Positions 14,820 to 16,674 of a stretch of 64,000 nt of DNA are shown here, piece after piece. The stretch lies in contig MU004231.1 in NCBI GenBank assembly GCA_010405405.1, forward strand, positions 2,061,860 to 2,125,859, written 5' to 3'. Positions within the stretch are counted from its first letter, which is position 1. Each line of letters begins with the position of its first letter. The notes under the pieces are model-generated. The model was not told the origin of the DNA, searched no databases, and saw only the letters and a program-made list of their open reading frames with translations. The position numbers and the translations under genes were made by a program. Origin of the DNA: Microthyrium microscopicum. Its lineage: Eukaryota.

Positions 14820-16674
14820 TTACTTGCTAGTGAATTCACAGGTACCATCGCCAACGCAGTCGAGTCCTTCACAGCAATGATCCCAGGTTGCACCTTTACA
14901 ACCATCTATGCAGCGAATATTAGCGACACCATTGATTGCTATTCAAAGGAGACTTACAGCCAGGATGTCCACAAGTCCAGCCAGGTCCGCCAGTCTGGCA
15001 ACAGATTTCAGGGTCCTGTCCATCCGGGTCCTTTGGTCTGGCAACAGATGTCAGCGTTCTCGGTATCCAGAACCTTTGGGGTAACAGCAGGATTGTTGAC
15101 GGGGACCGCAGCTTTGACATACTCAATGGCTTTGGCAACGATCTTGTTGGGTAGAGAATCGGATTTTGCGGAGTAACAGATACCATCACTACCACACTGA
15201 ATGCCGAGTCCCTCGCAGCAAGGTTGCTTCTCAGTACAGGAGTCTTTGTAGGTACTTGTTAGCAGGCTCTGAGAAAAGCGAAGTGGTACTTACCTGCAAC
15301 CTCCCCACAATACTGATGTCCAAAGAATGGTGGGTTCTTGGCACAGTAACCGGAAGAAAGACACTGATTTCCTCTACCTGCTTGACAACAATCGCTGTTG
15401 GTCTTACAAGGTGCTTTGCAAAAAGTTAGCAAAACCCAATAATGTTGAGACAGAAAGAGTAAAGCTTACCATCGAGCCACCCACAGGTAGCTCCAGAATC
15501 AGCAGCCAGAATATCCGGAGTCTTTTGAGTTGTCGCGGCAGTATTAGTACGAGAAGAAACTATGACGGTTTCGAAACGTCGGTTAGGACTCGCGCCACAA
15601 CGACCAGAGTCTATGCAACTACCACCGGGACAGCATGGGTTGGCGAAATCACAACCGTCTGTGCAAGCAGGGTCAGTGAATGCTCTGAGACGGACACGGG
15701 TGATGTAGAACTTACCACCAATGTTTTGACAGGTAGTTGATTGAGCAGCCAGGACTACTGGAGCCTTTGGGGCCGTCGCGGGTGTATCGTCATGAGAAGA
15801 GACTTGAGCGATCTCGAACTTTCCGTTCGGAGGATTTGGCCCACAGTGACCATCTCTATTGCACCCAGAACCAGGACAGCATGGGTGAGCCCAATCGCAA
15901 CCGTCTTGTAAGCATTGGTTAGCAAGGTATTTGAGACGGAGACAGATGAAGCAAACTTACTACCAATGGGTTGACAATCTGCTTGAGCAGCTGGCTCTGG
16001 AACGTTGGCGGTCGATGTTTTTGCGACGATTTCAACAACCTCGCGCTTGTGATTGGCCCCACAGCGACCAGAAAGCACACAGCTGCCACCGGGACAGCAA
16101 GGCCGAGAGAAATCACAGCCCTCTTCACAAGCAATGGTTAGTAAAATAGTCTGCGTTGGAAACATGACAATTCAAGCAAAACTTACCGCCGATGCCTGCA
16201 CAGGATCCCTCAGCTAGAATGCCAGAAAGCTTTGGAGTTGTCGCAGGAATGTTGTCACGAGAGGAGACTTGAGAGGAACCGCTATGGTGATGAACAGGCT
16301 TATCGATGGCGCAAGCCTCTCCATCAGCACAGCGTTTGTTGGCGGTGGATGGCTTTTCGACAACCTCGATCTCAGCAATTTGAGGAGCACTACGCTTCTC
16401 GGTGAAATGACAGTGGTTGTCGTTGGCGCATGAGAGACCTGTACAGCAGATTTTGTAGATCCAGCCGGTGCAAGGATCTTTAAAGAAGTTGTCAGCAAAA
16501 TCAGCAATGGAGGAAAAGAAACTTACCGCCGTTTTGGCCACAGGACTTGGGTGCTGCGGGCTTCAGTCCGAAATCGTTTGGATTGACGGGACTAGTATCA
16601 GCAGGAACTGACAGAGCATTGGCAAGGCCAACTAGGCCGACCAAGCCAGAGATAGCAAGAGGGGAGAGTCGCAT
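14820..16674 (-). CDS. Secreted multi-module cysteine-rich precursor with seven inhibitor-cystine-knot (knottin)-like repeats, ~461 aa
   Basis: Signal peptide MRLSPLAISGLVGLVGLANA; exons 16674-16527, 16477-16187, 16122-15961, 15904-15716, 15658-15470, 15413-15294, 15243-15123, 15037-14958, 14905-14820 sum to 1386 nt in an open frame; seven C-x6-C-x5/7-CC-x4-7-C-x5-C modules. Confidence 0.88.

Follow-up and report, generated by a model that had tools for sequence, protein, structure and literature searches.

A fungal multi-knottin gene grown by unit duplication, in which a half-spliced intron of apparent coding origin probably rescues a duplication frameshift

The gene, its products and its surroundings

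The window analysed here is a stretch of 64,000 nt from Microthyrium microscopicum, a saprobic fungus of the Dothideomycetes, and all coordinates are positions in it. The Microthyriales are leaf-surface fly-speck fungi. On the minus strand, starting from an ATG at 16674, lies a gene for a precursor of tandem six-cysteine modules, each of which is cut by an intron (Table 1). Six sequencing runs carry the locus: four DNA runs of one sample, which may be the source of the window itself, run X5, and run X6, from a third study. Four of the six runs were compared with the gene. None of the six is recorded as RNA; X5, which consists of contigs only, was treated as RNA since its contigs skip introns; it is a single RNA-like run, in which contig depth is a rough measure of the isoforms and from which the contigs drop rare forms.

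Table 1. Exons, introns and duplicated segments of the multi-knottin gene
Feature	Position	Strand	Details
Exon 1, coding part	16527..16674	-	Met 16674, signal-like hydrophobic N-terminus, pro-region, Cys-I of module 1; covered by X5
Intron 1, 49 nt	16478..16526	-	Phase 1, AAG; sequence and X5 joint
Exon 2, 291 nt	16187..16477	-	Cys II-VI of module 1, KR, 69-residue linker, Cys-I of module 2
Intron 2, 64 nt	16123..16186	-	Phase 1, AAG; homologue of introns 3 and 4; X5 joint
Exon 3, 162 nt	15961..16122	-	Core of module 2 (knottin by model), KR, linker, Cys-I of module 3
Intron 3, 56 nt	15905..15960	-	Phase 1, AAG; X5 joint and intron comparison
Exon 4, 189 nt	15716..15904	-	Core of module 3, linker, Cys-I of module 4
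Intron 4, 57 nt	15659..15715	-	Phase 1, CAG; X5 joint
Exon 5, 189 nt	15470..15658	-	Core of module 4, RR, linker, Cys-I of module 5
Intron 5, 56 nt	15414..15469	-	Phase 1, AAG; X5 joint
Exon 6, 120 nt	15294..15413	-	Core of module 5, 11-residue linker, Cys-I of module 6
Intron 6, 50 nt	15244..15293	-	Phase 1, AAG; X5 joint
Exon 7a, 121 nt	15123..15243	-	Core of module 6, beginning of last linker
Intron X (eighth), 85 nt	15038..15122	-	Phase 2, GTATGT donor, GCTGAC branch, CAG acceptor; X5 joint
43-nt duplication, copy 1	15018..15060	-	Intron X has its branch motif and acceptor here
43-nt duplication, copy 2	14975..15017	-	9/43 letters differ; CAG present, branch motif absent
TGA of the intron-retaining form	15008..15010	-	50 nt upstream of intron 7; the annotated protein stops here too
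Exon 7b, 80 nt	14958..15037	-	Spliced form: CC-bearing extension, Cys-I of module 7
Intron 7, 52 nt	14906..14957	-	TAG; phase 1 only if intron X is spliced
Exon 8, coding part	14820..14905	-	Cys II-VI of module 7 and stop of the 461-aa form

The gene corresponds to the annotated M. microscopicum protein KAF2673228.1 (P0002), with 100% identity over exon 2 and a sequence that is identical, by eye, from Met81 to the end. The annotated protein is the form that retains intron X, preceded by 80 extra N-terminal residues without a hydrophobic segment, and module 7 is absent from it. An upstream in-frame ATG (16675-16914, minus strand) accounts for the 80 extra residues. The 126 nt before the ATG at 16674 have a G content of 2% and resemble a 5' leader, and Met81 begins the signal-like stretch. 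In the protein read from 16674, the best 11-residue hydropathy (2.19, at residue 6) is signal-like as far as hydropathy goes, and we infer that the precursor is secreted.

All seven modules have the cysteine order C-C-CC-C-C, with loops of 6, 5-7, 0, 4-7 and 5; the module cores are 33-68% identical to that of module 2, and cysteine makes up 9.0% of the protein. The model of module 2, made from an eight-row alignment, has a pLDDT of 85 and strands at 20-22 and 27-30, in keeping with the beta-hairpin at the C-terminal end of a knottin. Its best Foldseek match is ProTx-I (TM 0.77, with none at E 0.001), and a wide structure search placed ICK peptides first (Z 4.2 and, over 33 residues, an rmsd of 1.8, with none at Z 5). 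Weak statistics are usual in structure searches at knottin size. According to the model, module 2 is predicted to have a fold like that of a knottin. We take the 25 PDB sequence-profile matches (E 0.007-7) to be knottin-type peptides, judging by their names; profile A2 included P0004, a protein from outside the window. The model of the whole chain is poor (pLDDT 43), and neither the annotated protein nor six pieces of the gene gave a Pfam match at E 0.01. A common fold is no proof of toxicity.

The precursor has four dibasic sites: KR or RR directly follows modules 1, 2 and 4, and one more KR lies in linker 1. There is no such site at modules 3, 5 and 6, and none directly before any module. 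Most linkers are long (28-69 residues), and modules 5 and 6 are separated by 11 residues. Partial cleavage of the Kex2 type may take place at the KR/RR sites after modules 1, 2 and 4, in which case modules 5-6(-7) would stay together in a single product with two or three knots. Two pairs of extra cysteines are found outside the knots. One, a C-x5-C pair in exon 2 (16187-16477), lies between a KR site and module 2; the other, a CC in exon 7b (14958-15037), stands just before module 7 or, in the retained form, in the tail.

Word-index protein searches returned only the gene's own annotation (1/266 and 1/4136 candidates), and none of 488 shorter proteins matched at E 10. An HMMER scan of 1.84 billion representatives gave four matches, one of which was the gene itself, and no orthologue; the matches P0003 and P0005 were set aside as unrelated repeats. 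P0004, a protein of 201 residues from ENA (765-nt contig), has three repeats with the cysteine spacing of the gene's modules (C-x6-C-x5-CC-x4-C-x5-C), weak matches to Toxin_12 and Toxin_19, and a C-terminal cytochrome c-like part. It was rejected as a relative and is probably a prokaryotic case of convergence. Two metagenome loci, drawn from 298 pattern matches, proved on inspection to be chance matches. Searches of the ESM Atlas with two regions gave no usable feature match, only small cysteine-rich structural look-alikes.

The window holds no six-cysteine modules elsewhere: the pattern matched seven times, always in the gene. DUF3328, by which a dikaritin (ust-RiPS) cluster is recognised, was not found in 18 long window ORFs, nor in 50 ORFs out of the 75 with at least 95 aa below 28.5 kb, a survey that can miss short exons. 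The upstream neighbour on the same strand (17222-18163, minus) encodes a membrane protein with a fungal rhodopsin domain (PF20684). The X5 contig with the gene extends about 2 kb beyond 17100, which does not imply a single transcript. Upstream of the gene, at 16988-17052, the DNA run X3 has a small cluster of variant contigs around an imperfect repeat with a spacing of 41 nt.

Duplication of an intron-bearing unit

A preliminary description of the locus listed seven introns with GTAAG donors, all interrupting the fifth codon after Cys-I in phase 1 and mostly ending in AAG. Its coordinates are right for 7/7, all seven begin with GTAAG, and the interrupted codon and the phase are as described; the acceptors are AAG in five, CAG in one and TAG in one. 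Introns 3 and 4 do have TCCGTCTCA in common, and exons 4 and 5 are indeed of equal length (189 nt each). X5 splices the seven introns at exactly these ends and agrees with the window letter for letter, so that the AAG acceptors must be in use in vivo. In 11 of the 11 intron-bearing bins checked the depth of X5 equals the exon-only expectation, so the seven introns have no depth in this run. A CTRAY branch motif is present in 7/7 of the listed introns, its A lying 12-15 nt from the intron end, and each AAG acceptor is the first AG at least 10 bases past the branch A. Exact as it was for seven introns, the first gene model was incomplete, as it lacked the phase-2 intron at 15122-15038 (intron X below), and the phase symmetry that it ascribed to the internal exons holds for exons 2-6 only, given that not all introns are in phase 1.

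The AAG acceptor had been called rare, which was an overstatement. It is enriched in this gene, with 5/7 introns against 3/22 heuristic introns elsewhere in the window (Fisher p 0.008, the seven introns not being independent of one another). The 22 background introns were hand-picked from the 50 candidate rows of a heuristic intron listing, leaving out duplicates, the rows of this gene, weak donors, second donors per acceptor and one antisense row. Predicted introns that end in AAG are found in other genes at 13215-13266, 36303-36354 (minus strand) and 48841-48889 (plus strand), and these three suggest that the acceptor is not very rare in M. microscopicum. Intron 4 (15659-15715) is in frame and stop-free, with a GC of 0.53, and its retention would add 19 residues to loop 1 of module 4; no form that retains it is present among the X5 contigs.

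The introns themselves support the proposal of growth by tandem duplication of a unit that contains an intron. Compared without their splice signals, introns 2 and 3 scored z 4.85 and introns 3 and 4 scored z 4.74, both higher than any of the 385 control pairs, and pair 2-4 gave 3.31. Introns 2-4 are homologous in this comparison, and the gene therefore grew by tandem duplication. The 21 intron pairs within the gene taken together also exceed the controls (Mann-Whitney p 0.0006); z is borderline, at 2.4-2.9, for pairs 4-5, 4-6 and 5-7, and intron 1 has no such similarity to the other introns (z 0.2-1.2). Modules 2-4 follow one another at a repeat spacing of 218-246 nt, and their cores are 62-73% identical in DNA. 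Across the modules pN was lower than pS in 20 of 21 pairs, with synonymous sites near saturation. The common position of the introns reflects common descent, and the AAG acceptors were probably inherited through duplication; together the two are the usual trace that tandem duplication leaves. A unit of about 220-250 nt, with one phase-1 intron in knot loop 1, would have been duplicated repeatedly to give the module array.

The 43-nt duplication and intron X

Introns 6 and 7 flank an exon of 286 nt, which is not a multiple of three. With the seven listed introns alone, the frame ends at a TGA (15010-15008) after six modules, and module 7 and its intron are never reached. The frameshift in this exon stems from a 43-nt tandem duplication: at lag 43, 34/43 letters are alike (15060-15018 vs 15017-14975), compared with 13-16 matches at lags 42, 44 and 45, which rules out a 42-nt duplication with a later indel. 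An assembly error is ruled out by the DNA contigs of X2, X3 and X6, all of which match the window; in X2 the whole stretch lies in one identical contig, and X6 covers 14887-15157 with 0 differences. The copies differ at 9/43 sites, so the duplicated state is not fresh.

One X5 joint skips 15122-15038, with GT..AG ends, no microhomology and a depth of 274. Three neighbouring X5 bins each leave a residue of 314.1-314.2, which fits one unspliced contig over 15008-15152; the contig that retains intron X, with a depth of 314, was derived by this bin-depth arithmetic. Intron X is therefore spliced in about 47% of the local X5 depth, a figure from one run in which contig depth is a rough measure. The two forms have different products: with intron X retained the protein has 444 aa and six modules, and with intron X spliced it has 461 aa and seven modules, the net change in length (+43-85 = -42 nt) bringing module 7 into frame again. 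Intron X by itself, at 85 nt, is not a multiple of three and keeps the frame only in combination with the 43-nt duplication. Its splice signals are canonical, besides being used in the RNA run, and score 20.1 bits, the top of 306 GT..AG pairs within the eight exons; the best pair in any other exon scores 13.4 bits, and the median of the background introns is 20.9 bits. The distal CAG in copy 2 was rejected as an acceptor: it has no joint and no branch motif, and its use would not restore module 7 (6 modules).

Several features of intron X recall coding sequence. In the frame of module 6 it has 0 stops in 28 codons, and its DNA aligns with the coding linker of exon 2 over 24/33 columns (z 5.1). 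Translated, it resembles three linkers jointly at p 0.003, a value to be read beside one wrong-frame control that also reached p 0.009; with exons 3-6 taken singly, protein p is 0.045-0.94 and DNA z at most 1.4, and the likeness is clear for exon 2 only. Its GC is 0.53 against 0.47-0.59 in the exons, and intron 4 and 4/22 background introns are equally GC-rich. The branch motif occurs in copy 1 of the duplication only, and the linkers of the other modules are free of introns. The direction of the change rests on these sister modules because no orthologue was found, and the comparison with them suggests that intron X is of exonic origin. We infer that the duplication came first and intron X second. 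A 43-nt tandem duplication in the last linker would have put module 7 out of frame; latent signals in the linker, namely a donor in Glu-Tyr-Val codons, a branch point in Ala-Asp and an acceptor in Gln, would then have given an 85-nt intron, the removal of which would cancel the frameshift and make module 7 readable again, and incomplete splicing would yield both six-module and seven-module precursors. Intron X looks like an intron part-way through its birth. Overall, we consider it probable that the gene encodes a secreted knottin array that arose by unit duplication, and that the frameshift from a later duplication is rescued by a half-spliced, formerly coding intron, with six- and seven-module forms as the outcome.

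Module 7 still has its six cysteines and an open frame, and this bears on whether it might be a decaying remnant, the six-module form being the functional one and the 85-nt skip a case of tolerated, unselected cryptic splicing. Neutral survival in this state was simulated at 0.17, 0.07 and 0.01 for 8, 12 and 20% change, modest evidence from a simulation without indels, and is thus not negligible at low divergence. The remnant account also draws on the depth of the retained form, which is at least that of the spliced one (314 vs 274), on the annotated protein, which is the retained form, and on the nine residues of shifted frame that the spliced form includes. Yet the signals of intron X equal those of true introns and stand far above the cryptic pairs in other exons, the rival distal acceptor is without a branch motif, and module 7 has kept all six cysteines behind an intron 7 that is fully spliced in the contigs; we regard decay as unlikely, and selection presumably acts on module 7. 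Signals at full strength would equally suit an older, ordinary intron, whose retained form is pre-mRNA or noise and whose frame is open by chance: by simple codon count 28 stop-free codons have a chance of about 1 in 4, and retention is the commonest fungal splicing variant (PMC3925392). We find this hardly credible, in view of the alignment with the exon 2 linker, the absence of a linker intron from the other modules, the position of both branch and acceptor within one duplication copy when the other copy is exonic, and the lack of retention of the other seven introns in X5. Since Kex2-type cleavage would leave modules 5-6(-7) joined, the choice between a double and a triple knot would fall to intron X. 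A further reading, in which intron X is no transitional state but a selected and regulated valency switch between a terminal double knot (5-6) and a triple knot (5-6-7), in an undescribed fungal multi-knottin family, seems rather doubtful to us; the sole hints are pS and pN between the 43-nt copies (0.42 vs 0.18 over 13 codons), the nearly equal depths and how old the duplication is. If it were true, each 43-nt copy would be read in the ancestral CCQ frame, one per isoform, and a frameshift would have been turned into a stable valency switch.

A different form of alternative splicing had been proposed at the outset, in which skipping of the symmetric phase-1 exons would give chimeric knottins and a combinatorial repertoire. 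Each of exons 2-6 (291, 162, 189, 189 and 120 nt) is divisible by three in length and has a phase-1 intron at either end, and rare isoforms can stay hidden in contigs. The proposal is nevertheless unsupported: 0/8 X5 joints skip an exon, in contigs that drop rare forms, and 8/8 connect adjacent exons. The introns, of 49-85 nt, have strong signals, and the piece to be swapped, Cys-I and four residues, is near-identical in modules 2-4 (CAGIG, CQPIG and CQNIG). In fungi skipped exons make up 3% of alternative splicing events, against 61% for intron retention (PMC3925392). We hold a combinatorial repertoire to be very improbable; the alternative splicing that does occur in the gene is the retention of intron X.

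Relation to known systems and meaning of the gene

Among the arrays with which the gene can be compared, X-tox is alternatively spliced. The precursor resembles both X-tox (PMC2728511) and mussel multi-MgCRP-I (PMC4558851) in being a rosary of six-cysteine modules that arose by internal duplication. In the lepidopteran X-tox the motifs are of the defensin-like CS-alpha-beta type and lie on separate exons, and no active defensins are released from the proteins (PMC2728511), which cautions against assuming that an array of this kind is cleaved to active peptides; in multi-MgCRP-I the modules lie in one exon (PMC4558851), whereas here an intron cuts each module. Synthetic mussel six-cysteine peptides with a toxin-like pattern refolded with a 1-2, 3-4, 5-6 connectivity (PMC4558851), in place of the 1-4, 2-5, 3-6 disulfides of a threaded cystine knot. 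With SCREP, which are further defined by multivalent binding of one target, the gene shares a signal-like N-terminus and tandem homologous disulfide modules, and its 11-residue linker between modules 5 and 6 is within the usual <20; unlike SCREP it is fungal, has six or seven knots, long linkers (28-69) and some dibasic sites, and lacks sequence orthology (PMC9885460). Its cysteine content of 9.0% is above the 5% cut of the SCREP paper and below the 10% default filter (PMC9885460). A secreted fungal knottin fold is known from Avr9, MLP124266 and the Venturia knottin-like candidates, and the available part of that account describes no tandem multi-knottin precursor (PMC9632046). Like the Kex2-processed repeat proteins, the precursor consists of repeats with some KR/RR sites; the KEP examples described there have short core peptides and a Kex2 site per repeat (PMC7329392), whereas here KR/RR follows three of the first six modules and the repeats have diverged.

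Tandem genomic duplication can yield imprecise intron gain, and intronization has been reviewed, with reference to Gao and Lynch 2009 (PMC3443670). Intron X resembles the gain described there, in which duplication wakes nearby latent splice sites, coding nucleotides are removed and the new intron is partly used; it differs in not being a multiple of three, in apparently cancelling the frameshift of the duplication, and in having sister modules that give the ancestral state (PMC3443670). Five cases of intronization in Cryptococcus, with unspliced cDNAs in four of the five, are alike in turning fungal exonic sequence into a partly retained intron, but all are 3n and intron X is 3n+1 (PMC2740785). 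The PTC-driven model of Catania and Lynch predicts 3n introns that include the stop, with a passing stage, half exon and half intron, by which a premature stop is rescued (PMC2586383). Intron X resembles that stage but departs from the prediction in being 3n+1 and stop-free, the stop lying 27 nt downstream. Intron X also fits a non-3n exitron, being alternatively spliced, stop-free and contained in the coding exon that comes last in the annotated protein, and like the non-3n exitrons described it is part of an annotated coding exon and alters the C-terminus (PMC4484396). In Arabidopsis and human exitrons the unspliced form is the full protein (PMC4484396), whereas here splicing appears to restore an ancestral, longer C-terminus. 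In the open literature, judged by titles and the opening lines of abstracts, there was no report of this gene, of a fungal tandem multi-knottin or of a non-3n, frame-rescuing intronization in fungi; Gao and Lynch 2009 may hold such cases, and the protein may be listed in supplementary tables of the KEP and SCREP papers.

Secreted multi-knottins and duplication-triggered intronization are known; what is new here is a non-3n, frame-rescuing intron in a fungal orphan gene. Intron birth driven by frameshifts or stops has been proposed, and according to a 2012 review it was hard to detect and then without evidence (PMC3443670). The gene looks like a natural case of frameshift-driven intron birth, and it brings its own internal control, with six sister modules that keep the ancestral exonic linker and a new intron that is half spliced. 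By analogy with other peptides of this kind, the products might form an extracellular set of binding or inhibitory peptides directed against competing microbes or grazing invertebrates, a function that we put forward tentatively. The precursor, with its six or seven knottin-like modules, comes from a leaf-surface lineage of fungi and had no relative in the searches made, and it would therefore be a source of new stable peptide scaffolds.
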